Below the pieces are notes generated by a model. It was given only the letters and a program-made list of their open reading frames with translations. It had not been told where the DNA came from and did no database searches. DNA of 64,000 bases. It comes from Fibrobacterales bacterium. Its GTDB lineage: Bacteria; Fibrobacterota; Fibrobacteria; Fibrobacterales; JAOPTW01. Positions 6,600-54,143 of the stretch are shown here, in pieces; position 1 is the first letter of the stretch; each line of letters begins with the position of its first letter. The stretch spans positions 149,047 through 213,046 of the forward strand of contig JAOPTX010000015.1 in the NCBI GenBank assembly GCA_051532055.1, written 5' to 3'. Both the position numbers and the translations under genes were made by a program.

Positions 6600-7877
6600 A
6601 TGAATTCATCATTACAATGGTTCTATATAATTACGATGCTATTAAGTAGTCATTTAGGGGCTGCAACTCTATCAAGTATTACTGAAGAAGCATTGAGTAA
6701 GGGGACTCATGTTGAAATTGCACGGCAAAAAGTGGCAATGGCTAATGCGGATGTCTCTATTGTAGGGAGCTTACCTAATCCAGTTTTTGGATATGGGTGG
6801 TACGGTGAGTCTGTTGAAACTAAGGTCGGGCCACAAGAGCAGAAATTGAGTATTACTCAAAAAATTCCATGGATTGGCAAACTTAAGGATCGAGTCGACA
6901 TAGCTGAAGTTGAAGTTAATAAGCAAAGATTGGATCTTCAGACAATGCAGGCGAGCGTTGTATATCAAGTGAGAATGATCTGGGCTGAAATATGTTACCT
7001 ATCCAGAGCGCGAGATATAAATAAAAAGACGCTTGCTCTGTATGAAAATTGGATGGAAAAACTACGTTCCGACTATGAATCTATGCGAACGTCTTATAGT
7101 AGAGTTATAAAAATGGAGACTGAAGTGACAGTGCTCCAAGAGGATATTTTTACTATTGAACGCAAATTAGCAGATCAATATACAAGGCTTGGAGTGTTTC
7201 TCAATCGTAAGATGTTGGGAGAATTTTTTAGTGATTCATTGGCATTGTATGCGAAACGAGCGGGAGATCAAGAGATAGATACCGTCTTGAGGATGAGTCC
7301 ACAACTACAAAAGAGTCAATTACAACGCGAACTTTGGAAAGAAAAAGAGGAGCTTTCGAAGGGGGGGTATTTTCCCGATTTGGCAGTAGGGGCGACTTAT
7401 ATACAGACTGGTGATGCCGTTGGTATGAATGAAAGCGGTAAAGATCCGTGGATGCTGACAGTTGGTATAAGTCTTCCTCTCAATATTATTCAAACGAATG
7501 CACAGGTTAAAAAAGCTCAGTTAGGAACTCAGCAAGCGGCGTCTAAAGCTCAGGAGATGAAGCTTTCCCTCGATGCCCTGATACAGACTACACAAAACTT
7601 AATAGCTGAGTCTCAACGAATACAGTCATTGTATACCGATCGAGTGGTGCCGGATATTGAAAAATCAATACGGGTACAAGAAAACCAATTTACCGTTGGG
7701 AATATTGATTTTATGCAACTTCTTGATGATTATCGTATGCTACTCAGGCTTCAGCTACGGGTGCATCAAGCCCTCAAAACTGAGTTTCAATCAAAAGCAA
7801 AAATACTTTGGATTGGTGGTGATGTCACTACCACTTTTAGCTATCCCTATGTGGTAGTGAATAAGGAGATACCATGA
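6600..7877 (+). CDS. TolC/CusC-family outer-membrane efflux channel
   Basis: OEP-type helical repeats (LSITQKIPWIGK, YFPDLAVGATY, VGISLPL); first gene of the RND operon; ATG 6600 preferred to GTG 6567. Confidence 0.9.
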   Translation: MNSSLQWFYIITMLLSSHLGAATLSSITEEALSKGTHVEIARQKVAMANADVSIVGSLPNPVFGYGWYGESVETKVGPQEQKLSITQKIPWIGKLKDRVDIAEVEVNKQRLDLQTMQASVVYQVRMIWAEICYLSRARDINKKTLALYENWMEKLRSDYESMRTSYSRVIKMETEVTVLQEDIFTIERKLADQYTRLGVFLNRKMLGEFFSDSLALYAKRAGDQEIDTVLRMSPQLQKSQLQRELWKEKEELSKGGYFPDLAVGATYIQTGDAVGMNESGKDPWMLTVGISLPLNIIQTNAQVKKAQLGTQQAASKAQEMKLSLDALIQTTQNLIAESQRIQSLYTDRVVPDIEKSIRVQENQFTVGNIDFMQLLDDYRMLLRLQLRVHQALKTEFQSKAKILWIGGDVTTTFSYPYVVVNKEIP

Positions 7878-9628
7878 AAGATTCTACTAATAAGAAGTTT
7901 AAAGTAATGGGCATACTGCTATTAGTAGTGGTTGCATTTTTTATGGGTAAAACTACGACGTCCTCTAAAATTGATGTATATGAGCATACTGATACTCATA
8001 TTGAAGAAACAGTGTGGACTTGTTCAATGCATCCTCAAATTAAGTTACCCAAACCAGGGAAGTGCCCTCTCTGTGCAATGGACTTGATACCACTTGAAAA
8101 AGATGATATGGTGGGCGAAACAGGAGAACCACAGATAAGGCTATCTGAGTATTCACGTAAACTGGCGAGTGTGAGAACGGCACGGGTCCAAAAAGCTACA
8201 AAAAATTCAACTCTTGAATTGGTGGGTGAGTTAGTATGGGATGAGACAAAGCTAAAAACAGAGACCGCTTGGTTTGGTGGGAGAATTGAAAAATTAAATG
8301 TTTCATTTACTGGGCAGTATGTTAAAAAAGGGCAGGTTATCGCTGAGATTTATAGTCCAGAGTTATACGCGGCTGCTGAAGAATGGCGACAATCAAAAGG
8401 ATCTGATAATGATCGTCTCAAACAATCGGTGCATAAAAAGCTTAAGCTCTTAGGGCTTGATGATGATGATATCAAAAATTTATCAACGATTAACTCTGAG
8501 CGGGTCATTCAGCGGGCGAAATATAGTGGTGTTGTAGTACGCCGAAGCGTTGAAGAAGGTCAATATGTAAAAATAGGATCTCCTTTAGTTAAGCTGGGTT
8601 CCACTCGGTCACTTTGGGTAGAGCTCGATGTATTTGAGCAAGATCTCCCGGGAATTCGAATAGGCCAAAAAGTTATGTTGAAGACTGAGAGTTTACCTGG
8701 GGAAGAATTTAAATCTACTGTTGGATTTATTCACCCTGTGTTGGATAAAATGAATCGGGCAGTTAAGGTTCGCTTGTCAGTCGCCAATAGAAAGACTATG
8801 CTTAAGCCGGGGATGTTAGTACGGGGAAACATTTCGGTCAAAGGATTGACAGAGAAGTTATTGATACCTGAGTCAGCGCCATTGCTCACTGGTGAAAGAG
8901 CAGTGGTATATTTAGAAATTGAGCCAGGAGTTTACACGGGTAGGGTTATTGTGTTAGGCGAGCATGTTGGTGCCTATTATGAAGTGTTAAAAGGTCTACA
9001 AGAAAATGATGTCATTGTTGCACGTGGCGCCTTTAAAATAGATGCAGCAATGCAAATTCAAGCCCTTCCTTCAGTGATGTACCCTAAAGGAGGTGGTTTG
9101 GCAGATGCCCACAAACATAATGCTATTGTGAAACAACAAAGCAAAAGTGGGGATGAGAAGAATGCCTTAAATAAGGGAATACTTGATAGCAAGGGGAGTA
9201 AGTGGTTGGAAACCTATTTTTCAAGCTATATCAAACTACAGAAGGCTTTAGTCGCAGATGATGTAGAAAAAGCAAAGGCAAGCATACTTTCCCTTGCGGC
9301 ACAATTACATTCTATACCTAAAATTTTAAATGATGGACATACGAAACATAAGGCGGCGGGGTTTAAAGCTTCCGCAGAGTCGGGCGACATAAATAGTATA
9401 CGGAGTGAATTCCTGACTCTTTCTACAGCCTTGATACAGTGGCTCCGGAGTACCGAACTAAAACCAGGAAAAGGTGCAGCAATTTATTTTTGCCCTATGG
9501 CAAATAAAAATAACGGAGCAGAATGGCTTCAGCAGGGTGGAGATGTACAAAACCCTTATTATGGAAGTGCGATGCTAGAGTGTGGGGAGCAGCGTTTGGT
9601 ACTTTCCAAGCCTGAAGAGGATAAGTAA
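7874..9628 (+). CDS. cusB: CusB-type RND periplasmic adaptor with N-terminal heavy-metal-binding domain and C-terminal DUF3347-like domain
   Basis: WTCSMHPQI...GKCPLCAMDL; MFP core (GRIEKL, IYSPEL, LKPGM); C-terminal YFCPMA...WLQ...NPYYGSAMLECG. Confidence 0.88.
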   Translation: MKDSTNKKFKVMGILLLVVVAFFMGKTTTSSKIDVYEHTDTHIEETVWTCSMHPQIKLPKPGKCPLCAMDLIPLEKDDMVGETGEPQIRLSEYSRKLASVRTARVQKATKNSTLELVGELVWDETKLKTETAWFGGRIEKLNVSFTGQYVKKGQVIAEIYSPELYAAAEEWRQSKGSDNDRLKQSVHKKLKLLGLDDDDIKNLSTINSERVIQRAKYSGVVVRRSVEEGQYVKIGSPLVKLGSTRSLWVELDVFEQDLPGIRIGQKVMLKTESLPGEEFKSTVGFIHPVLDKMNRAVKVRLSVANRKTMLKPGMLVRGNISVKGLTEKLLIPESAPLLTGERAVVYLEIEPGVYTGRVIVLGEHVGAYYEVLKGLQENDVIVARGAFKIDAAMQIQALPSVMYPKGGGLADAHKHNAIVKQQSKSGDEKNALNKGILDSKGSKWLETYFSSYIKLQKALVADDVEKAKASILSLAAQLHSIPKILNDGHTKHKAAGFKASAESGDINSIRSEFLTLSTALIQWLRSTELKPGKGAAIYFCPMANKNNGAEWLQQGGDVQNPYYGSAMLECGEQRLVLSKPEEDK

Positions 9629-12600
9629 TGTCACAGAAGATCACTGATCCAAATCCAGGTCTTATTGGGAACCTTATCCGTTTTAGTTTAGAGAAAAAAC
9701 TGATAGTTTTTATTGTGTTGTTGGGTGTATTGTTTGCAGGGTTTTCGACAGCCCCTTTTGATTGGAATCTAGCGGGGCTTCCCCGCTCTCCTATCCCTGT
9801 AGATGCCATTCCTGATATCGGTGAAAACCAGCAAATTGTATTTACTAACTGGAATGGTCGATCACCGCAGGATGTTGAGGATCAAATTACCTATCCATTG
9901 ACAGTACAGTTGATGGGGGTGCCGGGCGTTAAAACAATTCGGTCGTACTCATATTTTGGGTTTTCTAGTATCTATGTGATTTTTAAAGAAGATGTTGAGT
10001 TTTATTGGTCTCGAAGTAGAATCCTTGAAAAATTGAGCAGTCTTCCCGCAGGGGTTCTCCCATCGGGAGTCCAACCGGCATTGGGGCCTGATGCGACGGC
10101 ATTAGGCCAGGTCTACTGGTATACCCTTGAGGGACTCGATTCTGAAGGAAAACCCACCGGTGGATGGGATCTCGACGAACTACGAAGTATCAATGATTTT
10201 TATGTGCGTTATGCGCTTCAGAGCGTTGAGGGAGTTGCAGAAGTGGCTGCCGCAGGTGGCATGGTTCGGGAGTATCAAATAGATATAGATCCCGATAAGT
10301 TACGTCATTATGATATTAGTATAGAGCAGGTGTATAAGGCTGTATCAGAATCTAATCAAGATGTTGGAGCTCGTACAGTTGAAATTAATCGCATGGAGTA
10401 TGTAATTCGCGGTAAGGGAAATGTACGGAATATTGATGACCTTAAGGCGACCGTTATTAAAGACCATGATAATCATCCGGTGTATCTCGAACAAGTAGCC
10501 CATGTATATCTGGGCCCCGCTCCACGGAGAGGGGCACTTGATAAAGGAGGTGCTGACGTGACGGGTGGTGTGGTCGTCGTTCGGTATGGTGACAATCCAC
10601 TCGAGGCCATAAAGGGGATTGAGGCAAAAATTGCAGAAATCGCAGCCGGGCTTCCTCAAAGAGTTCTTGATGATGGCACTATAAGTAAAGTGAGTGTCGT
10701 TCCCTTTTATAATAGGGCAGGTCTTATTTATGAGACGCTAGATACCTTAAGTAGCGCCCTCAGTGAAGAAATATTAATTACGGTGATTGTTATTTTATTT
10801 ATGCTCGGTCATCTTAGGTCAAGTATTGTGATTTCATTACTGCTCCCAGCAGCGGTGCTCGCCTGTTTTGTAGCTATGAAGCTCTTTGGGGTTGATGCGA
10901 ATGTGGTGGCCTTGTCAGGGATTGCAATTGCTATCGGCACAATGGTGGATATGGGGATTATAATATCTGAAAATATCGTTATCCATTTACAGCAGGCTTC
11001 AGAAAAAGATTCAAAAGTAATGGTTGTCTATCGGGCAACTAAAGAGGTTGCAGGAGCAGTTGTTACAGCGGTAGCCACAACAATCATCAGCTTTATACCC
11101 GTGTTTACAATGACCGCAGCTGAGGGTAAACTTTTTAAACCCCTTGCATTTACCAAAACATTCGCTCTTGGAGGGGCGCTTGCATTATCCCTATTTGTTA
11201 TCCCGCCCCTCGCAGTACTTCTGTTTAAAAAAGGCAAAGAGTTTTCAACAAAACGGCAGGAGCGTAATAATAAATGGTTTCTTCGAGGGTTATTAGTACT
11301 GGCAACAGTAGTGCTCTCTCATCATTGGTTGCCACTTGGTCCTGAATTCGGGGAATTTTTAAATCTTCTTTTTGTTTCGCTTTTACTCTTTGGAGTACTG
11401 TGGCTAATTCAGTTGTTTATAAAATATTACCCTCATATGTTGGGATGGTGCTTGGAGCATAAAGTGTTATTTTTATCGGCTCCAATTTTGATTCTAATAA
11501 TGGCAGGAAATATTTGGCGAACTACGGGAAATGAATTTATGCCTGCCCTCGATGAAGGCTCATATTTACTTATGCCTACCACTATGCCACACGCTGGGTT
11601 TGAAGAGGCTCAAGAACAACTTGCCCTTCTCGATCAGATGATAGAAACTGTTCCAGAGGTTGAAATGGCGGTGGGTAAACTAGGTCGGGCAGAGACATCT
11701 CTCGATCCGGCACCTACCTCCATGTATGAGATTGTAATTAATTATAAAAATGAGTATGGGGTTGATAGTACAGGGGGGAGGGTGCGCCAATGGCGAGATC
11801 ATATCAAGTCTCCTGATGATATCTGGAATGAAATTGTTAAAGTAACTAAGATTCCGGGGGTAACCTCTGCGCCAAAATTGATGCCTATTGCAGCGCGCAT
11901 TGTGATGCTACAAAGTGGTATGCGTGCCCCGATGGGCTTAAAAGTAAAGGGTCCAAATCTTCAATCTATTGAAGCGTTTGGGATGAAGGTTGAAAAATAT
12001 TTGAAAGATGTTGAAGGAGTTGAACCTGCCACAGTCATTGCAGATAGAATAGTAGGGAAGCCTTATTTAGAATTTGATATTGACCGCAGAAAAGCTGCGC
12101 GTTTTGGACTCTCTATAAAGCAGATTCAAATGACTTTAATGACGGCTCTTGGAGGAAGAACTGCTTCTTATACGGTAGAGGGGCGTGAGCGTTATCCCAT
12201 TCGCATCCGTTATATGAGGGAAAAAAGAGATGATTTAGATGCTATGCGTGGCCTACTTATTCGAACTTCACGGGGGGTACAAGTACCTATTTCTCAAGTT
12301 GCAACAATTAATTTTAGTAGAGGTCCCATGGTGATAAAAAGTGAAGATGGCTTTTTGGTGGGATATGTGGTCTTTGATAAAGAGTCTGGGTTGGCTGAAA
12401 CAGAGGTAGTAGAATCGGCTCAATCTCATCTGCAGCATCTTATAGACAATGGGACATTGTCAGTCCCTGATGGCGTCAGTTATGTTTTTACGGGTAATTA
12501 TGAGAATCAGCTCAGAGCTAAAAAGACTCTTTCTGTCGTCCTGCCCATTGCCCTTCTTGTTATACTGCTCATTCTCTATCTACAGTTTGGGAGTTTCTCA

Positions 12601-13092
12601 ACAACGCTAATGATTTTTAGTGGGATTTTGGTGGCTTGGGCAGGTGGTTTTTTACTGATTGGTCTGTATAACACTGAATGGTTTTTAAACTTCTCTCTTT
12701 TTGGAGTCGATTTTCGTGAACTTTTTCAGATTCGAACGGTAAATCTATCTGTTGCTGTGTGGGTTGGATTCATAGCGCTGTTTGGTGTCGCCTCTGATAA
12801 TGGGGTAGTTATCAGTGAATACCTTAAACAGAAGTTTTCAAAACAAAAAGCAAATAATAAGCAAGAGGTGCGGAAGTTAGTGATTGAGGCGGCGACGAGA
12901 CGTATCAGACCTTGTCTTATGACTACTGCCACAACGCTCCTTGCCCTCATTCCTGTCCTTACAAGTACAGGGCGAGGCTCTGATATTATGCTTCCTATGT
13001 CTATACCGTCATTTGGTGGTATGTTAGTTGTCATTATAAGTGTATTTGTGGTGCCAGTTCTCTATTCAATCAAGGAAGAGAGAAAGGTTTAA
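9628..13092 (+). CDS. cusA: CusA/CzcA-family heavy-metal RND efflux permease (probably Cu/Ag)
   Basis: DAIPDIGENQQIVFT, PQDVEDQITYPLT, GIAIAIGTMVD, EFMPALDEG, RIRPCLMT. Confidence 0.92.
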   Translation: MSQKITDPNPGLIGNLIRFSLEKKLIVFIVLLGVLFAGFSTAPFDWNLAGLPRSPIPVDAIPDIGENQQIVFTNWNGRSPQDVEDQITYPLTVQLMGVPGVKTIRSYSYFGFSSIYVIFKEDVEFYWSRSRILEKLSSLPAGVLPSGVQPALGPDATALGQVYWYTLEGLDSEGKPTGGWDLDELRSINDFYVRYALQSVEGVAEVAAAGGMVREYQIDIDPDKLRHYDISIEQVYKAVSESNQDVGARTVEINRMEYVIRGKGNVRNIDDLKATVIKDHDNHPVYLEQVAHVYLGPAPRRGALDKGGADVTGGVVVVRYGDNPLEAIKGIEAKIAEIAAGLPQRVLDDGTISKVSVVPFYNRAGLIYETLDTLSSALSEEILITVIVILFMLGHLRSSIVISLLLPAAVLACFVAMKLFGVDANVVALSGIAIAIGTMVDMGIIISENIVIHLQQASEKDSKVMVVYRATKEVAGAVVTAVATTIISFIPVFTMTAAEGKLFKPLAFTKTFALGGALALSLFVIPPLAVLLFKKGKEFSTKRQERNNKWFLRGLLVLATVVLSHHWLPLGPEFGEFLNLLFVSLLLFGVLWLIQLFIKYYPHMLGWCLEHKVLFLSAPILILIMAGNIWRTTGNEFMPALDEGSYLLMPTTMPHAGFEEAQEQLALLDQMIETVPEVEMAVGKLGRAETSLDPAPTSMYEIVINYKNEYGVDSTGGRVRQWRDHIKSPDDIWNEIVKVTKIPGVTSAPKLMPIAARIVMLQSGMRAPMGLKVKGPNLQSIEAFGMKVEKYLKDVEGVEPATVIADRIVGKPYLEFDIDRRKAARFGLSIKQIQMTLMTALGGRTASYTVEGRERYPIRIRYMREKRDDLDAMRGLLIRTSRGVQVPISQVATINFSRGPMVIKSEDGFLVGYVVFDKESGLAETEVVESAQSHLQHLIDNGTLSVPDGVSYVFTGNYENQLRAKKTLSVVLPIALLVILLILYLQFGSFSTTLMIFSGILVAWAGGFLLIGLYNTEWFLNFSLFGVDFRELFQIRTVNLSVAVWVGFIALFGVASDNGVVISEYLKQKFSKQKANNKQEVRKLVIEAATRRIRPCLMTTATTLLALIPVLTSTGRGSDIMLPMSIPSFGGMLVVIISVFVVPVLYSIKEERKV

Positions 13093-13201
13093 TTGCACAA
13101 CAGGGCTCTAGTTAAAGCGGAAGATTAAAAAGCGACCCACTTTTTTCCGTTCTGGATAGTTCCTTTTCTATATTGAAAGTGAATTATTGATTGAGGCTCA
13201 T

Positions 13202-14227
13202 ATGAAAATTGTAGCAGTTGTGTTGTTGGGTGTTATAACACTCTTTTCCGCTGAGGTTTCATTTAAAAACCCTGATATCAAAACACGTTATTCTAAAAAG
13301 CTTCAAGAACGAATCAACTCTGGTGATGAATTATTACAAGAGTTTAACGGTGACGGGGAGTTTGAGGCACTATTACAGGCACATCCTGAATTGTGGGTCA
13401 TTACTAACCTAAAAGATAGTATCGAACTTGCAACCTCTCTCAAGCTTGATTTGGTCTACATTGATGGTATTAATGAAGAGTCAATGTGTACTATACGGCG
13501 ACCTGAGTCAATTGATACTCGTATGGTATGGGATGTAGAACTGGGTGTTGACTTTATATCTGGTGGTGCTAGTATAATACCTGAACATATAAAGATCTGT
13601 TTTGAAAAGATCAAATCTGAGGTGGGGTATGCTTATTATAATGATAAAAAAGAGATTGTAAAAGTGCTTCCTGAGCAAATAGCAAATGATCTTGAAGTGT
13701 ACAGAGTGGCAGGAGATATTGCTGAAGATTTACAACTCAAGGTACTGGCTATTCAAAAAGAGTTTATTACAACCACAAAGTGCCCACAAAACATTGAGTC
13801 TTATTTGGTTCTCATGGATATTTATGAGCAAGTTGACACCTTAATACAAGATATTTTCCAAGCAGAGAACGACCTAAGTGTTGTAAAAAATGGTGGGAAA
13901 AAAGTTACTGCATGCGCTTTCAGCAAACAGTGGAATGAACAATACTCAGAAGATTTCGATGTTACTTGTAATATTACTGACAACAGCTGTATCATTACTC
14001 AAAGCGAAGATGGCAGACGTGAGTGGGTGATGAATTTTGACCAGAATACCTTTGAATTTCAAGGAGAGAGTATTCTCTTTATTCCCATAGGAGATCAGAG
14101 TATTCATGATGGAGGGCAAGTTATGGATCTTAGATTAATACCGTTATCGCAGAATCTCTATATTGAAGCGTATTTGAGTAAGGACAAAAAACCGGTTTCG
14201 CTTGGGCTTCTGACAATAGAAAAATAA
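13202..14227 (+). CDS. Secreted hypothetical protein
   Basis: ATG 13202 after GAGG; signal peptide MKIVAVVLLGVITLFSA; no recognised domain. Confidence 0.75.
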   Translation: MKIVAVVLLGVITLFSAEVSFKNPDIKTRYSKKLQERINSGDELLQEFNGDGEFEALLQAHPELWVITNLKDSIELATSLKLDLVYIDGINEESMCTIRRPESIDTRMVWDVELGVDFISGGASIIPEHIKICFEKIKSEVGYAYYNDKKEIVKVLPEQIANDLEVYRVAGDIAEDLQLKVLAIQKEFITTTKCPQNIESYLVLMDIYEQVDTLIQDIFQAENDLSVVKNGGKKVTACAFSKQWNEQYSEDFDVTCNITDNSCIITQSEDGRREWVMNFDQNTFEFQGESILFIPIGDQSIHDGGQVMDLRLIPLSQNLYIEAYLSKDKKPVSLGLLTIEK

Positions 14228-14264
14228 AAAAGTCCCAGCTCTCATTGAGAGCTGGGACTTTTTT
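14226..14264. terminator. Bidirectional Rho-independent terminator between convergent genes
   Basis: AAAAAAGTCCCAGCTCTC-att-GAGAGCTGGGACTTTTTT. Confidence 0.92.
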
Positions 14265-14279
14265 ATTAAATGTTTGATT

Positions 14280-14783
14280 TTAAGTCTCTTCACTTCCTCG
14301 AGCCATGATTACTTTACCAGTGCGAATATATTCAACGATATTGAATTTTTCACAGAGCTCTTTCATAGAATCGATTTTTTCTGAATCACCCGTTACCTGA
14401 ATAATGGCGGAATCGGGAGTCATGTCAACAGTCATCGCTTTGAAGTGTTGGATGATTTGTAAGAGTTCAGTTCTGTGTTCTGGTGGGCACTTGATTTTGA
14501 TAAGCGCAAGCTCTTTTTCAACGATATCATCACCAGTGTGGTCATTTGCATGCAACACATCAACAAGTTTTTGTAATTGCTTGATAATTTGTTCAAGAAT
14601 ATCTGGATTACCACGAGCGACGATATTCATTCGAGCAAATCGTTCCTCTTTTGAGGGGGATACGACTAGTGAGTCTATGTTATAACCGCGACGTGAAAAT
14701 ACCAATGCGATACGAACGAGAGCGCCGGGTCTGTTTTCAACCAGTAAACTAATAGAGTGAGCGGGGTGTTTGTTGTAGGGCAT
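14280..14783 (-). CDS. ilvN: Acetolactate synthase small (regulatory) subunit
   Basis: ISLLVENRPGAL..I..VFSRRGYNIDSL ACT domain; KELALIK; IRTG. Confidence 0.95.
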   Translation of the reverse strand: MPYNKHPAHSISLLVENRPGALVRIALVFSRRGYNIDSLVVSPSKEERFARMNIVARGNPDILEQIIKQLQKLVDVLHANDHTGDDIVEKELALIKIKCPPEHRTELLQIIQHFKAMTVDMTPDSAIIQVTGDSEKIDSMKELCEKFNIVEYIRTGKVIMARGSEET

Positions 14784-16956: not shown

Positions 16957-17580
16957 ATGGGTATTATTCTTAAAGGTTTTGGCTTGGATCAATCCGGATG
17001 GGGCTTCATGTGGGCAATTGCAATCATGGGTGGTCTTGCACTGGGTCTTACAGTAGAGAGATTTTACTACATAGTGATTAAGTCTGGCAAAGGCAGAAAA
17101 GAGTTTATGAAAAATATTGCCGGAATGCTAAAATCTGAAAAAGTATCCGAAGCTATTAACTATGCAAAAACATCAGAGCTTCCATTAGCAAAATGTATTT
17201 ATGCTGTGTTGTCTAACAAAGATCGTGGTGAGAAAGGGATGACTAAAGCACTTGATGAAGTATTCCTTACTGAAGCTCCAAGGGTTAATCGTTATTTAAG
17301 TGTTCTGATGACTCTTGCAAATGTTGCAACACTCGTGGGTCTTATTGGTACTATTTTTGGTCTAATCATGGCGTTTGATGCGGTAGCGAATTTACCTGCA
17401 GCTGAGAGACCAACCGCACTTGCAAATGGTATTGCAGTAGCGATGAATACTACCTTCTGCGGACTATTTGTGGCTATTCCACTCATGTTTGCTCAGGGAT
17501 ATTTTTCAATGGAATCTGAAAGAATAATTGAAGAAATGGAAGAAAAATCACTGAAAGTTATCAATCTGTTTGATAAATAG
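16957..17580 (+). CDS. MotA/TolQ/ExbB proton-channel subunit (AglR-like)
   Basis: ATLVGLIGTIFGLI and GIAVAMNTTFCGL TM motifs; AGGAG RBS. Confidence 0.92.
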   Translation: MGIILKGFGLDQSGWGFMWAIAIMGGLALGLTVERFYYIVIKSGKGRKEFMKNIAGMLKSEKVSEAINYAKTSELPLAKCIYAVLSNKDRGEKGMTKALDEVFLTEAPRVNRYLSVLMTLANVATLVGLIGTIFGLIMAFDAVANLPAAERPTALANGIAVAMNTTFCGLFVAIPLMFAQGYFSMESERIIEEMEEKSLKVINLFDK

Positions 17581-47781: not shown

Positions 47782-48438
47782 TTACTTGCGTTTACCTGTG
47801 ATTTTGTCTTCGAGTTTAAAAAGGCTGCCGTATAGCTGAATCAGGTCGTCAATCCAGATAGCGTCACGCTCTGAAATTAGTTTACAGACTTCAGAAACGT
47901 TGTTTGCATTGTTGTAAGGGCCCACTTGATTGTCAATTTTAGCAAAAGGTCTCATGAAGACTGAAGCTGAAAATTGAGCCCTCAAAGAGCGGTGAAGGCG
48001 GTCAAAGAGGCGTTTTTTAACTGTTTGAATGTCTTGCTGAATTGTATTGGGAGGTACTTTTTCACTCAGCTTTTTCTGAATATCGGCAAGTTCGGAAGCA
48101 ATTGATTCTTTGTCTGGCTTTGGTATATAGAGTTGCTTATTGATAAAGAAGCGCTTAAGGTTTTTAAATTCTCGTTCTAAGAGTTCAGGACCAAAGGTGT
48201 TTGCAAAAGGTGTAAAGTCTTTGGTTATTTCTTTTATTTTTAAGTGTTTACCTTGGCGTTCTGCCCATGTATCAAGTCGCTCTATCAATCGTAGTGCTAT
48301 AGGTTCATTTCCTACTAAAAGGAATGACTCAGCTTGAATTATTATGGTGTCAGCATAGGCGTATTTATGTGTTCCACTTACTGTGTCACTTTTCAGTTGG
48401 GCTATTCTTTTTTTCCACTCATTAATACGCGTTTGCAT
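47782..48438 (-). CDS. ZorG-like (DUF2894-like) protein of a putative Zorya type III system
   Basis: C-terminal QVGPYNNANNV...LISERDAIWIDDLIQLYGSLFKLE resembles the DUF2894 AGPLN...L..M....P.YL..F..Y...L..L motif as I recall it; last gene of the operon. Confidence 0.65.
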   Translation of the reverse strand: MQTRINEWKKRIAQLKSDTVSGTHKYAYADTIIIQAESFLLVGNEPIALRLIERLDTWAERQGKHLKIKEITKDFTPFANTFGPELLEREFKNLKRFFINKQLYIPKPDKESIASELADIQKKLSEKVPPNTIQQDIQTVKKRLFDRLHRSLRAQFSASVFMRPFAKIDNQVGPYNNANNVSEVCKLISERDAIWIDDLIQLYGSLFKLEDKITGKRK

Positions 48439-48443
48439 TTTAA

Positions 48444-49115
48444 TTATCCGTCTATTTTTGAATCGATTGTAGGGACTCGGATGATCTCTACTCGTCTATT
48501 TTTCATACGATTGGATTCGTGACTGTTTTCAACCTTGGGGCGGAACTCACCAAAACCTGCAGCAAAAATTCTTGATGGTACTAATGTATTACTTTTCTTC
48601 ATAAGTATGTTTACCACATTAGTCGCTCTCTTTGTAGAGAGTTCCCAGTTTGATTTAAAGAATTTAGAATTAATAGGTATATCGTCTGTATGCCCTGCCA
48701 CCATGAGCATTTCATTCTTTCCAAGACTACTTCCTAAGACGTCACTTATTTTTCGAAGGACATCTTTACCTTTCTTTTTAACTATTGAACTACCGGTCGA
48801 GAAAAGAAACTCTGCTTGTATTTCAATTTTACCATCAGTTAAAGTGACAGACCCATCTCTGAGAGAGTTTCCGAGGGCTTGTGCAAGAAGAGCGTCACGC
48901 TCGCGCTCTGCTTTCTCCTTTGCGGCTTTCTCTTTTTGAAACTCCTCTTCTTTACGAGTGAATGCATCGATTTGTTTTGTTAGCTCTGCTTCTTTATCAG
49001 ATTTCAGTGAAGACATAAATATAAATGCGATAAGAAAGAGTACGAAGAGAGCCATGGTCAAGTCGGTAAACATAATCCATGGAGTTTCATCGTGTTTATC
49101 TAGGTGAATAGCCAT
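48444..49115 (-). CDS. ZorB-like MotB/OmpA-domain stator subunit
   Basis: PWIMFTDLTMAL TM with conserved Asp; coiled coil; VAGHTDD, NWELSTKRA, GFGEFRP, KNRRVEI. Confidence 0.85.
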   Translation of the reverse strand: MAIHLDKHDETPWIMFTDLTMALFVLFLIAFIFMSSLKSDKEAELTKQIDAFTRKEEEFQKEKAAKEKAERERDALLAQALGNSLRDGSVTLTDGKIEIQAEFLFSTGSSIVKKKGKDVLRKISDVLGSSLGKNEMLMVAGHTDDIPINSKFFKSNWELSTKRATNVVNILMKKSNTLVPSRIFAAGFGEFRPKVENSHESNRMKNRRVEIIRVPTIDSKIDG

Positions 49116-50909
49116 CTAAACCTCTGGCTCCTGGTCATACTCTTCAAGTGATTCACCTTGTAATTTCACTTGCTCTAAAACTTCAATAAGAATTTCTTGA
49201 GTCTTGAGTGCATTTTCAACCAACACTTCTGAGGCTTTCTCATGGAAGGCCTCGAGGGTGGATTCAAGCTTCTCATAAAAACTATTTTGGTCATCTGTTT
49301 CAGATTCAGAAGAAGAGATGTGTTCAATTAAAGATTCAACTCCTATAGTAAACATCTCGAGAGATGCTTGGAACTCAACTTGGTTGATTTTCATGAGGTT
49401 ACCGCCCTCAGAAATATTTTCAGTAAAGTTCATGAGTGAACTCATTTGCTCTGAGTATTGGGTTTCAAGTTCTTTACCTAATTTTTCTTGTATCTCAAAA
49501 TTGACTTTTGCCGCTTGGGCGAGGGTTTCGAACTCGTCTTGTAGCTTGCTAAACCCATCTCGACTTATCATACTGATAGACTCTTTGAGGCTTTCTGTAA
49601 ACTCGGTTGTTTTTTGGAATACGGTATCCATCTGACCTTGATTATGGCTCATGTATTCAGTTTGAAGCCCCCTGGATTGCTCTTGGTGGGTATTGAGTAG
49701 TTCCATCTGTTTTTCAATTTGCTGCCCTTGAGCTTCTGGTATGGACTGTATTACAGTGTGGAGATTGTCGAGTTGAGTTGAAACACCTTGTGTACTCAGC
49801 TCAGCAATTTCTTTTTGCATATCAGGAATGGTTTTAATAAAACTGTTCAGCTCTGAAAGGCGCTCAGCAATTTCATTTGATGTGTTACTGCTAATTTCTT
49901 TTTGGGATTCAAGAATTGAGTGGGCGCTATTCTCAACTTGAGAACTAAATGATGCGAGAAGTTCTCTTTGAGTTTCAATGGCCTCTGAGGCACTTTGGGA
50001 ATGTTTGCTAATGATGTCATCAAGAACGGATTTATGAGAGCCAGAGAGTTGTTCAATTACTAGAGAGTTTGCATCTGTGATTGATTGTTGCAATGTGGTA
50101 AACGTAGACTCTAGTTTGTCACTAATTTGGTTACTCAGTGATGCAGAGTTATTGGTTAGCTGTGTACTCATATCGTTTGAGTGTTCAGTAAGTTTACTGC
50201 CAAGGGAATCTACAAATTGTGAGAGGTTACTGCTGAGCTCTGTAATGAGTTGTTCATTACGATTCTCCTGTTCAGGAGCGAGCTGGGGAATGAGATAAAA
50301 GTGAGTGTACTCTTCTACTTCGGACATCATCTCAATATAAGCATTTTTAACCACAGAGTTTGCGACGCTTAAAAGCATGAATGCAATGAGACCTGTTAAA
50401 CTGGTGCCAAAAATACCATTCATGTCAGAGAAAATTGTAGTTATAAGTGTTTGAATTTCAAAACTTTCACTCATTGAACTTCCGGCTGTGGAAATTGCAC
50501 CCATCAAGCCAAAAAAGGTGCCAAGAAGACCGAGAGTCATAGTAAGATTGGCTGCTGAAGAGCCTAGTTTACTCGAAGCGCGAGCAGAGAGTATTTCAGA
50601 AAATGCAGAGAGGTCGACATGTTGATCGCGAGATTGTAGATCTTTGAGGATTTCATAGCGCTGATAGATAATTCTATCAGAAGGTTCAATAGTCGAATTT
50701 CCCGTACTCTTTTGTTCATGGATAGCATCTATTTCTGCTTGGGCAAAGGCGAGATTCTTAAGGTTCTTTAATTGGGTATATGCAAAGATAGCAAGGAGCA
50801 CTCCCCATATTACATAGCCATAAAGGGGGAACTGAAAATAGAGACACCCAATAAGACCTGCAAGTCCGAGGATGCTGAGAAAGATTATTTTCCGTACAGC
50901 TGCTTTCAT
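49116..50909 (-). CDS. ZorA-like MotA/ExbB-fold subunit with long helical cytoplasmic tail
   Basis: LGLLGTFFGL and IFGTSLTGL TM motifs, followed by roughly 400 aa of S/Q/E/L-rich heptad tail. Confidence 0.82.
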   Translation of the reverse strand: MKAAVRKIIFLSILGLAGLIGCLYFQFPLYGYVIWGVLLAIFAYTQLKNLKNLAFAQAEIDAIHEQKSTGNSTIEPSDRIIYQRYEILKDLQSRDQHVDLSAFSEILSARASSKLGSSAANLTMTLGLLGTFFGLMGAISTAGSSMSESFEIQTLITTIFSDMNGIFGTSLTGLIAFMLLSVANSVVKNAYIEMMSEVEEYTHFYLIPQLAPEQENRNEQLITELSSNLSQFVDSLGSKLTEHSNDMSTQLTNNSASLSNQISDKLESTFTTLQQSITDANSLVIEQLSGSHKSVLDDIISKHSQSASEAIETQRELLASFSSQVENSAHSILESQKEISSNTSNEIAERLSELNSFIKTIPDMQKEIAELSTQGVSTQLDNLHTVIQSIPEAQGQQIEKQMELLNTHQEQSRGLQTEYMSHNQGQMDTVFQKTTEFTESLKESISMISRDGFSKLQDEFETLAQAAKVNFEIQEKLGKELETQYSEQMSSLMNFTENISEGGNLMKINQVEFQASLEMFTIGVESLIEHISSSESETDDQNSFYEKLESTLEAFHEKASEVLVENALKTQEILIEVLEQVKLQGESLEEYDQEPEV

Positions 50910-50927
50910 TAAGAGAATCCTTTTAAT

Positions 50928-51869
50928 TTACTTTTTATTTTTAAAGAGGTCGAGTTGTCCTTGTGAAAATCCGCGCGAAAATATTTCCCACTTAGTTTTG
51001 TACCAGTGTGATAATTCGAGAGAGATTCCCAGGCAAAAGTCGATATAATCTTCTGTAAATGCTCTGAAACCATTGTCCCATAAACCTAGTGGGTTCCACA
51101 CTCTATTACCAATAGCGTTAAAAAGTGCAGCTTCAGTAGCGTAATAGCGTTTAGGTTGTTTTTGAATACCTGTGATAAACTTCTTTTGTGCAAGTGTGTA
51201 GAGGGAGCTTCGTATGTTTGTAATTACATTTTGATCTATGTTACGAAGACCGGCTTCAAGGGTAGGGAGTATCTTGGTTACAGGGGTCGAAATAGAATTT
51301 TGATGCCAAAGATTCGATCCATTTTTTTGAATATGGGTTGCTCGTGAATAAGTTGTAACAAGATTTTTTTCTGAATCGCCTACCATCAGATGGAGTGTTT
51401 GTAAAAAGAAATCTTTTATCTCTTTGGTGCGATGGCCAACTTTAAGTCGGTACCCCTCATCACTTTTTTCAATCCAGCCACCTTCTCTAAGGACGGGAAG
51501 CATGACATCAGCGGTGAGTCTCTGAGCCCATTTAGATCTGAAGTCTGCAAATTTATCTTCTATTTCTTTATTCAGGGCGTTAAACTCTCGTTGGCAAAAT
51601 TTGAGACACTCTTCTGATTCAGAAATATATTCACTCTCTAGGGTGAAGTTTTTCTGAGATTGTTCAATATGTTCCCTTAATATAATGGAGTATGAGTTGT
51701 TCATTGAATGACTCAATTGTTGAACTACCTCTTGTTGAGGCAAAAAGCTTTTAAGGTCAACAATTGACTGACCGGTAAACTGTTTGAAAGCTTTCCTGAA
51801 GTTACTATCCAAAGGGTATATTTTCGGTTGAATTTCGAAGTAGAAATATAGAAATTCTAGGGGGATCAA
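50928..51869 (-). CDS. ZorF-like (DUF3348-like) helical protein with C-terminal QLDLF motif
   Basis: Lies immediately upstream of the zorA-like gene; helical segments loosely match DUF3348 as recalled; start may be TTG 51869 or TTG 51812. Confidence 0.55.
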   Translation of the reverse strand: MIPLEFLYFYFEIQPKIYPLDSNFRKAFKQFTGQSIVDLKSFLPQQEVVQQLSHSMNNSYSIILREHIEQSQKNFTLESEYISESEECLKFCQREFNALNKEIEDKFADFRSKWAQRLTADVMLPVLREGGWIEKSDEGYRLKVGHRTKEIKDFFLQTLHLMVGDSEKNLVTTYSRATHIQKNGSNLWHQNSISTPVTKILPTLEAGLRNIDQNVITNIRSSLYTLAQKKFITGIQKQPKRYYATEAALFNAIGNRVWNPLGLWDNGFRAFTEDYIDFCLGISLELSHWYKTKWEIFSRGFSQGQLDLFKNKK

Positions 51870-54023: not shown

Positions 54024-54111
54024 CGGTCACCTCACAGTTTATAACAAGTGGTAGTACTATTTTATTGGTTTATTGTATTATACTTTCGGCTATTATGCAC
54101 TGAAAAATGAT

Positions 54112-54143
54112 AAAAAAAGGGGAGTTTCTAAAAAAACTCCCCT
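54112..54143 (-). terminator. Terminator after trxB
   Basis: AGGGGAGTTT-ctaaa-AAACTCCCCT preceded by an A-run. Confidence 0.8.

Follow-up and report, generated by a model that had tools for sequence, protein, structure and literature searches.

The four-gene operon and its proteins

The operon described here lies in a stretch of 64,000 nucleotides from a Fibrobacterales bacterium (contig JAOPTX010000015.1, positions 149,047 to 213,046), which we call the window. It consists of four minus-strand open reading frames (ORFs), named F, A, B and G in the order in which they are read, that probably constitute an extremely diverged relative of type III Zorya (Table 1). An earlier note on this DNA had described four closely packed genes with intergenic gaps of 18, 0 and 5 nt, and this description holds: the ORF coordinates and gaps are correct, and the motifs that it quoted can all be found in the translated sequences, where A (597 aa) contains GLLGTF and FGTSL, B (223 aa) FTDLT and G (218 aa) GPYN. 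These are true genes and not chance ORFs, since conserved syntenic homologues of all four are found in many genomes. Their order is, as the note had proposed, that of canonical type III Zorya, in which a DUF3348 protein, ZorA3 (DUF802), ZorB3 and a DUF2894 protein follow one another, both in a canonical locus used here for reference (L047) and in the zorFABG arrangement given in the text of PMC8565338; the zorFABG naming is also used in the methods of Hu 2024 (PMC11946911). The names of the two flanking proteins are swapped between sources: the DUF3348 models of PADLOC-DB 2.0.0 are called ZorG and its DUF2894 models ZorF (PDLC00652-00658), and in the text of PMC8565338 the DUF3348 protein is ZorF and the DUF2894 protein ZorG. 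We therefore refer to the canonical proteins by their domain names.

The A and B proteins are best matched by the PADLOC models for ZorA3 and ZorB3, in agreement with the type III affinity suggested for them earlier. B matches the ZorB3 model PDLC00651 over residues 10-217 (E 6.6e-39, 131.6 bits; the best ZorB1 model reaches 88.7 bits), contains a Pfam OmpA domain (E 1.2e-16), and shares 34% identity with one canonical ZorB3 along its entire length, with the transmembrane (TM) aspartate and the linker segment kept. This aspartate is invariant both in the alignment of B with canonical ZorB3 proteins and in 8/8 orthologues, and the segment ALGNSLRDGSVTLTDGKIEI, to which the note had drawn attention, is present in the 223-aa protein, the linker segment being conserved in canonical ZorB3. 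Among NCBIfam models the best match of B is NF006547, with 125.6 bits, below the equivalog cut-off of 194; canonical ZorB3 proteins score 386-388 bits with the same model. The leading PADLOC models for A are PDLC00647 (E 2.9e-13, 47.2 bits) and PDLC00648 (E 1.9e-10), both ZorA3, and the best ZorA1 model gives E 7.9e-05 and 19.3 bits; the match of A is far weaker than that of canonical ZorA3, which scores E 0. When A was aligned with 44 canonical ZorA3 proteins by hhalign, the similarity was confined to the 83 columns of the channel helix pair (probability 97.9, E 4.6e-13). At its other end, the tip of the A tail is the only part of the protein recovered by tblastn in distant families, at 35-41% identity.

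Some of these features would also be compatible with a flagellar, gliding or Ton/Tol-type stator (MotAB, ExbBD or TolQR) accompanied by accessory genes. Orthologues carry the public names 'putative chemotaxis MotB' and 'biopolymer transport protein ExbB/TolQ', and the solved relatives of B are the C-terminal domains of MotB and PomB (E 1e-21 to 1e-14). Such an identity is nonetheless highly improbable, as A scores only 14.1 bits with Pfam MotA_ExbB (cut-off 22.9) and carries a tail of about 400 aa, and as the ZorB3 model spans the whole of B and outscores the MotB and MotD models, which cover the C-terminal part only. Moreover, eight separate places in the genome match MotA_ExbB above the Pfam cut-off, and the ZorA-like gene is not among them.

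The ORF of F is open to position 51869 (313 aa). Its relatives begin at an internal TTG at 51812, which is most likely the start codon of F as well and shortens the protein to 294 aa. The genome contains a single copy of F, the second F-like match being a 34-residue chance hit (E 0.00985). The structural model of F (mean predicted local distance difference test, pLDDT, 87.3; predicted template modelling score, pTM, 0.84) consists of long helices and two small hairpins, and that of G (mean pLDDT 81.0, pTM 0.48) of two helical bundles. With the F model, a Foldseek search of the PDB returned nothing at E <= 0.001; Foldseek and VIA-align gave generic helical-bundle matches only, and the best scores in the ESM Atlas (0.83 and 0.79) led to no relevant family. 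No DUF3348 or DUF2894 chain is present in the PDB. A complex prediction for the A tail tip (residues 490-597) with F (residues 20-313) and G, made without controls, scored 0.29, short of the mark of 0.32, and speaks neither for nor against such an assembly. Word-index homologue searches yielded just 4 and 3 relatives.

Similarity of F and G to DUF3348 and DUF2894

F and G were compared with a canonical set made up of one annotated locus (DUF3348, DUF802, OmpA and DUF2894) and 80 loci from named genomes. From the latter, genes were taken by position (55 F, 72 A, 80 B and 70 G), and the length-filtered sets contained 44 F and 58 G sequences. Searched with a hidden Markov model (HMM) of the F family, the 6004 stop-to-stop ORFs of the 80 loci returned ORFs at the DUF3348 position in all of the top 8 places (best E 0.0033); likewise, the HMM of the G family, searched against these 6004 ORFs, returned ORFs at the DUF2894 position in all of the top 12 (best E 0.0023). 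A score of at least 10 bits was reached by 7/44 DUF3348 proteins with the F model (maximum 15.2) and by 0/4400 shuffled sequences (maximum 6.7), with maxima of 5.0 bits for reversed sequences and 3.7 bits for the non-cognate DUF2894 family. For the G model the corresponding counts were 12/58 DUF2894 proteins (maximum 16.2) and 2/5800 shuffles (maximum 11.6), with maxima of 5.3 bits for reversed and 6.6 bits for non-cognate sequences. The proposal that F and G are distant counterparts of DUF3348 and DUF2894 thus finds weak and specific support, the HMM matches exceeding the shuffled, reversed and cross controls. The best F matches all come from related Xanthomonadales-type genomes and therefore amount to about one independent observation.

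Profile-profile alignment points in the same direction for G. With canonical DUF2894, hhalign gave E 9.2e-4 and a probability of 22.7 over 48 ungapped C-terminal columns, compared with E 0.32-0.65 for control alignments to the other canonical families, and it pairs the invariant GPYN ... D..W of G with the GPLN-containing end of DUF2894. The alignment of F with DUF3348 always lands on the same N-terminal helix.

Several results weigh against the assignment of the operon to the type III kind. No match to F or G was obtained with Pfam, PADLOC or NCBIfam models at E <= 1, and all 17 F and 16 G family members likewise gave none at E <= 10; in the positive control, the flanking proteins of the canonical locus L047 are found by the PADLOC models with E 9e-92 (DUF3348) and 2e-73 (DUF2894). 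The alignment of F with DUF3348 by hhalign is non-significant (E 0.034, and 0.057 when the alignment was enlarged to 57 rows; controls 0.07-0.54), as is the reverse search, in which canonical HMMs were run against Fibrobacteria ORFs. When the F profile was run in a full HMMER scan, only 69 representatives were recovered among 1.84 billion, and the 13 weaker ones that were scanned include none with DUF3348 that could form a bridge. In the A protein, DUF802 was not found in the tail (Pfam, E <= 1), and the hhalign comparison of the tail tip with the canonical tip gave E 0.057, with a better value for the reversed control (0.032), so that the resemblance to type III patterns that the note had seen in the ZorA C-terminus is not supported. 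Its expectation that F and G would escape standard profiles, on the other hand, is fully in line with the searches by curated and lenient Pfam and PADLOC models. PF11828 and PF11445 likewise gave nothing at E <= 10 in the six-frame translation of the genome.

It may be, then, that the relationship to ZorAB3 is confined to the A/B stator, and that F and G are unrelated proteins, independently recruited, whose order is convergent. The absence of curated profile matches, the non-significant hhalign result for F, and the lack of bridging sequences and of an informative fold match would all fit such an origin. We consider it unlikely. The similarity is cognate-specific both times and each time lies at the same protein end (the N-terminus of F and the C-terminus of G), the hhalign value for G is well separated from its controls, and the positions of both genes are identical to the canonical ones. 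Homology of both flanking proteins, and of the operon as a whole, is accordingly judged probable from sequence comparison, at a level below every curated threshold.

Distribution, motor loss and expression in the Fibrobacteria

F was found in 202/296 genomes of the phylum. It is present in 201/207 other genomes of the class, a count that leaves out the genome studied here, and in 0/88 genomes outside the class; the phylum tallies of F, ZorB and ZorC include one genome flagged as unpublished (G253, family f7). By family, the counts are 1/1 (f1), 2/2 (f2), 2/2 (f3), 147/151 (f4), 5/6 (f5), 1/1 (f6), 31/32 (f7) and 12/12 (f8). Four of the six class genomes without F are 62-88% complete, and two (G241 and G265) are 98-100% complete. 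The latter two are possible cases of true loss of the whole cluster, one of them being a genome of just 1.6 Mb.

Twenty loci were fetched, hand-picked to span the families and not random. The order F-A-B-G recurs in eight of these (L029-L034, L039 and L040), genes for a lipoprotein and a beta-helix protein lie upstream in six, and the lipoprotein family, as defined by a family HMM, occurs in 11/20, with an N-terminal cysteine in all. Divergence across the class goes down to about 22% identity. Conservation within the system is strongest in F, in the C-terminal ~100 residues of A and at the C-terminal end of G. The F tree follows taxonomy, and the order to which our genome belongs is split from the other families with support of 100/99. 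The earlier suggestion of a long-resident locus is strongly supported by this near class-wide presence of F together with the conserved synteny.

The stator is not equally persistent. At E <= 1e-30, a ZorB orthologue is present in 135/157 genomes of families f1-f4 and f6 (129/151 in f4 alone), and absent from f5 (0/6), f7 (0/32) and f8 (0/12), as well as from two genera inside f4, g7 (0/14) and g5 (0/1). In the 11 fetched loci that lack ZorB, intact genes for F, an A-like protein and G lie side by side without a B gene; a twelfth locus from these lineages (L036) is cut off by the contig end directly after A. Both channel motifs are found in 8/8 A proteins from loci with ZorB vs 0/11 from loci without it. 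Besides the tail tip, the A-like proteins of the ZorB-less loci retain one or two hydrophobic segments at the N-terminus; in g7 and g5 they measure only 180-232 aa, a single TM segment being joined to the tip by a linker of proline-rich repeats.

In the F tree, the F proteins of g5 and g7 group within the order of our genome, apart from the other motor-less families. The branches starred in that tree force at least two changes of motor state, and full systems are present on either side of its deepest split. We infer at least two losses of the motor, that is, of the B gene together with the channel helices of A, in lineages that kept F, the A tip and G, because regaining an in-frame channel and ZorB on two occasions is unlikely. 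The F tree is unrooted, and this scenario is therefore one of parsimony and not proof.

The cluster is also represented in a cultured organism. The four proteins of locus L029 are letter-identical to public proteins of Fibrobacter succinogenes S85, namely FSU_0287, D9S5A5 (publicly named 'fimbriae-associated domain protein'), 'putative chemotaxis MotB protein' and FSU_0284. In the envelope fraction of S85 analysed by Raut et al. 2019 (PMC6851124), FSU_0284, FSU_0285, FSU_0286, FSU_0288 and FSU_0289 were detected, that is, five of the six products of the orthologous cluster; FSU_0287 was not found in supplementary file 3 of that study. That FSU_0288 and FSU_0289 correspond to the beta-helix and lipoprotein genes was deduced from gene order. 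Fold changes between cellulose and glucose are small in the same data (1.26 for FSU_0284, -1.16 for FSU_0286, -1.17 for FSU_0288 and -1.21 for FSU_0289; PMC6851124). Detection in the envelope proteome means that the cluster is made in phage-free laboratory culture. A literature search did not find the FSU locus tags of the cluster outside this proteome study.

In the window, the F-A-B-G genes end a run of seven tightly packed co-directional genes, which opens with genes for a receiver-domain protein, the putative lipoprotein and the beta-helix protein. The beta-helix protein is an upstream neighbour conserved within the order (syntenic in 6/17 loci), and for the receiver-domain protein synteny is limited to the same-genus genome (L040); the C-terminal ~80 residues of this protein have no assigned domain. 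Ahead of the run lie a terminator-like hairpin and then a promoter-like site, where transcription of all seven genes as one unit may begin; promoter-like sites of this kind are no more frequent than in shuffled sequence. The flanks within ~5 kb are ordinary, encoding HD/GAF, YqeY, SPOR, radical-SAM/TRAM and receiver-domain proteins and two pyridine-nucleotide oxidoreductases. No PADLOC match was obtained for the three upstream genes (the rest of the window was not scanned for integrases), and ZorC, ZorD and ZorE were not found adjoining the operon in the PADLOC scan of its neighbours, none of which matched any model.

Table 1. Positions of the operon, its conserved parts, its neighbours and related loci (window coordinates unless a contig or locus is named)
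Feature	Position	Strand	Remarks
F, all-helical cytoplasmic protein, 294 aa	50928..51812	-	DUF3348 position of canonical type III loci
N-terminal motif of F, residues 43-72 (313-aa numbering)	51654..51743	-	sole part aligning with DUF3348
A, ZorA-like, 597 aa	49116..50909	-	two N-terminal TM helices, MotA-type channel pair, ~400-aa helical tail
ZorA channel core, residues 117-199	50313..50561	-	contains GLLGTF and FGTSL; hhalign vs canonical ZorA3
ZorA tail tip, residues 505-590	49140..49397	-	most conserved part of A across the class
B, ZorB-like, 223 aa	48444..49115	-	N-terminal TM helix with Asp18 (codon 49062-49064), C-terminal OmpA-like domain
G, helical cytoplasmic protein, 218 aa	47782..48438	-	DUF2894 position
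C-terminal motif of G, residues 171-217, GPYN ... D..W	47788..47928	-	aligns ungapped to GPLN-containing DUF2894 C-terminus
Beta-helix protein with signal peptide, 230 aa	51927..52619	-	Pfam Beta_helix 1.2e-08, NosD 1e-05
Putative lipoprotein, 264 aa	52616..53410	-	family directly upstream of the cluster, including in some motor-less lineages
Receiver-domain protein, 202 aa	53415..54023	-	first gene of co-directional run; Pfam Response_reg 1e-11
Terminator-like hairpin (54143-54118), then promoter-like site (54106-54077)	54077..54143	-	candidate; consensus matches only
Separate MotA/TolQ/ExbB-family gene	about 17182-17544 (contig positions 166228-166590)	+	Pfam E 5.1e-26
Minimal A-like protein between F and G	L129:3719-4261	+	no ZorB
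Minimal A-like protein between F and G	L130:5183-5812	-	no ZorB
Minimal A-like protein between F and G	L131:3774-4472	+	no ZorB
Type I Zorya genes of the same genome	contig C31:42000-60000, local 7198-14331	-	L128

Role of the operon and comparison with known systems

Our preferred reading, to which we give a probability of roughly 0.45, is that the operon is a vertically inherited, extremely diverged machine of the type III Zorya kind whose role is likelier to be a standing, envelope-coupled cell function than that of a mobile anti-phage island. In such a machine, the ZorB-like protein would be anchored to the peptidoglycan through its OmpA-like domain and would carry the conserved TM aspartate. 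By analogy with the solved type I and II ZorAB complexes, ion flow through the stator would drive ZorA, presumably in rotation, and the stoichiometry may likewise be 5:2. The tail of ~400 aa would extend into the cytoplasm, where its conserved tip would couple to an output module made up of F and G. Several lineages would have dispensed with the motor, with A reduced to a membrane anchor and the tip, and the selected unit would be a membrane-tethered complex of F, the A tip and G that the motor modulates where it is present. Retention of F, the tip and G under selection without ion flow is hard to reconcile with a purely motor-triggered defence and thus favours a standing cell function.

Some observations count against this assignment of role. 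Canonical type III Zorya gave protection against phage in Payne et al. 2021 (PMC8565338), and the docking of F and G on the A tail tip is suggested by co-conservation only. Canonical DUF3348 is itself common in certain groups, occurring in 119/201 sampled genomes of one proteobacterial family, the Burkholderiaceae (around G296), where 16/20 of the non-matching genomes listed are smaller than 3 Mb, and in 24/201 sampled genomes of another order (around G297). Type III Zorya may thus be largely vertically inherited in some Proteobacteria, and since canonical DUF3348 is so widespread in one family, conservation alone cannot exclude defence.

In a different account, the operon is a working type III anti-phage system that has become fixed in the class, its motor sensing phage damage to the envelope and signalling through the tail to F and G, in the manner proposed for canonical Zorya, and the motor-less loci being either a derived, different system or decaying. 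Homology to a system with anti-phage activity (PMC8565338), a gene order as in canonical type III, the long tails found in all Zorya types (PMC11946911), and a residency in the Burkholderiaceae that is compatible with defence all agree with it. Orthologue expression in S85 without phage does so as well, constitutive expression being usual for defence systems. We hold this account to be possible and somewhat doubtful. Presence in 201/207 genomes, conserved synteny and divergence to ~22% identity would be unusual for defence genes, and F, the A tip and G retain invariant residues in at least 11 motor-less loci, which are therefore not decaying.

Furthermore, the genome has a real defence island elsewhere, and it is strain-specific. 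This island contains a type I Zorya (ZorA1 E 4.6e-46, ZorB1 1.1e-43 and ZorD 1.1e-179, with a weak ZorC match of 3.6e-07) that adjoins PDC-S11, type IV and type I restriction genes, and its ZorC occurs in 1/296 phylum genomes and is absent even from the same-genus genome.

A broader extension of the preferred reading would be that type III Zorya is at root an old, vertically inherited cell machine, with F, the ZorA tip and G as its essential part and the ZorAB motor as an optional driver. It would then serve an envelope-coupled housekeeping function in the Fibrobacteria, perhaps also in the Burkholderiaceae, and phage protection on heterologous expression would be a side effect. We regard this generalization as rather unlikely as it stands.

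The class-wide distribution, the motor-less derivatives, the controls on the similarity of F and G, and the expression of orthologues are new. The class provides a natural experiment, in which a four-gene unit has diverged past profile recognition and become fixed in nearly every genome, and as the cluster is expressed in the culturable F. succinogenes S85, the question of defence or housekeeping becomes directly testable. Deletion of the motor in at least two lineages with F, the tip and G kept hints at which parts may interact and which may be dispensable. Zorya-like machines outside the Proteobacteria are counted too low, since this branch is missed by models of the PADLOC type.

Among known systems, the operon resembles the flagellar MotAB/PomAB stators in the OmpA-like C-terminal domain and TM aspartate of B and in the channel helix pair of A, and differs from them in the long tail of A and in its score below the MotA_ExbB cut-off. 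Fibrobacter is not known to be flagellated (no search for flagellar genes was made). With type I Zorya, as represented by the ZorABCD of EcZorI (PMC11946911), it shares a MotAB-like stator with a long cytoplasmic ZorA tail that has to communicate with soluble partners; it differs in that no ZorC, ZorD or ZorE adjoins it, in that the ZorA1 and ZorB1 models reach 19.3 and 88.7 bits vs 47.2 and 131.6 for ZorA3 and ZorB3, and, with respect to the type I system of the same genome, in its housekeeping context as opposed to a defence island.

With type III Zorya the operon has in common the four-gene order on one strand with tight packing, the best matches of A and B to ZorA3 and ZorB3, with B aligning end to end, and helical flanking proteins of similar size with one short common motif each. 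In contrast to type III Zorya, neither F nor G is recognized by the DUF3348 and DUF2894 profiles, A is without a DUF802 match and shorter (597 aa vs ~700-1000 aa in canonical proteins), and B falls under the NCBI equivalog cut-off. The operon is further set apart from canonical type III loci by the lipoprotein and beta-helix genes upstream, by its presence in nearly the whole class, and by the existence of motor-less derivatives.

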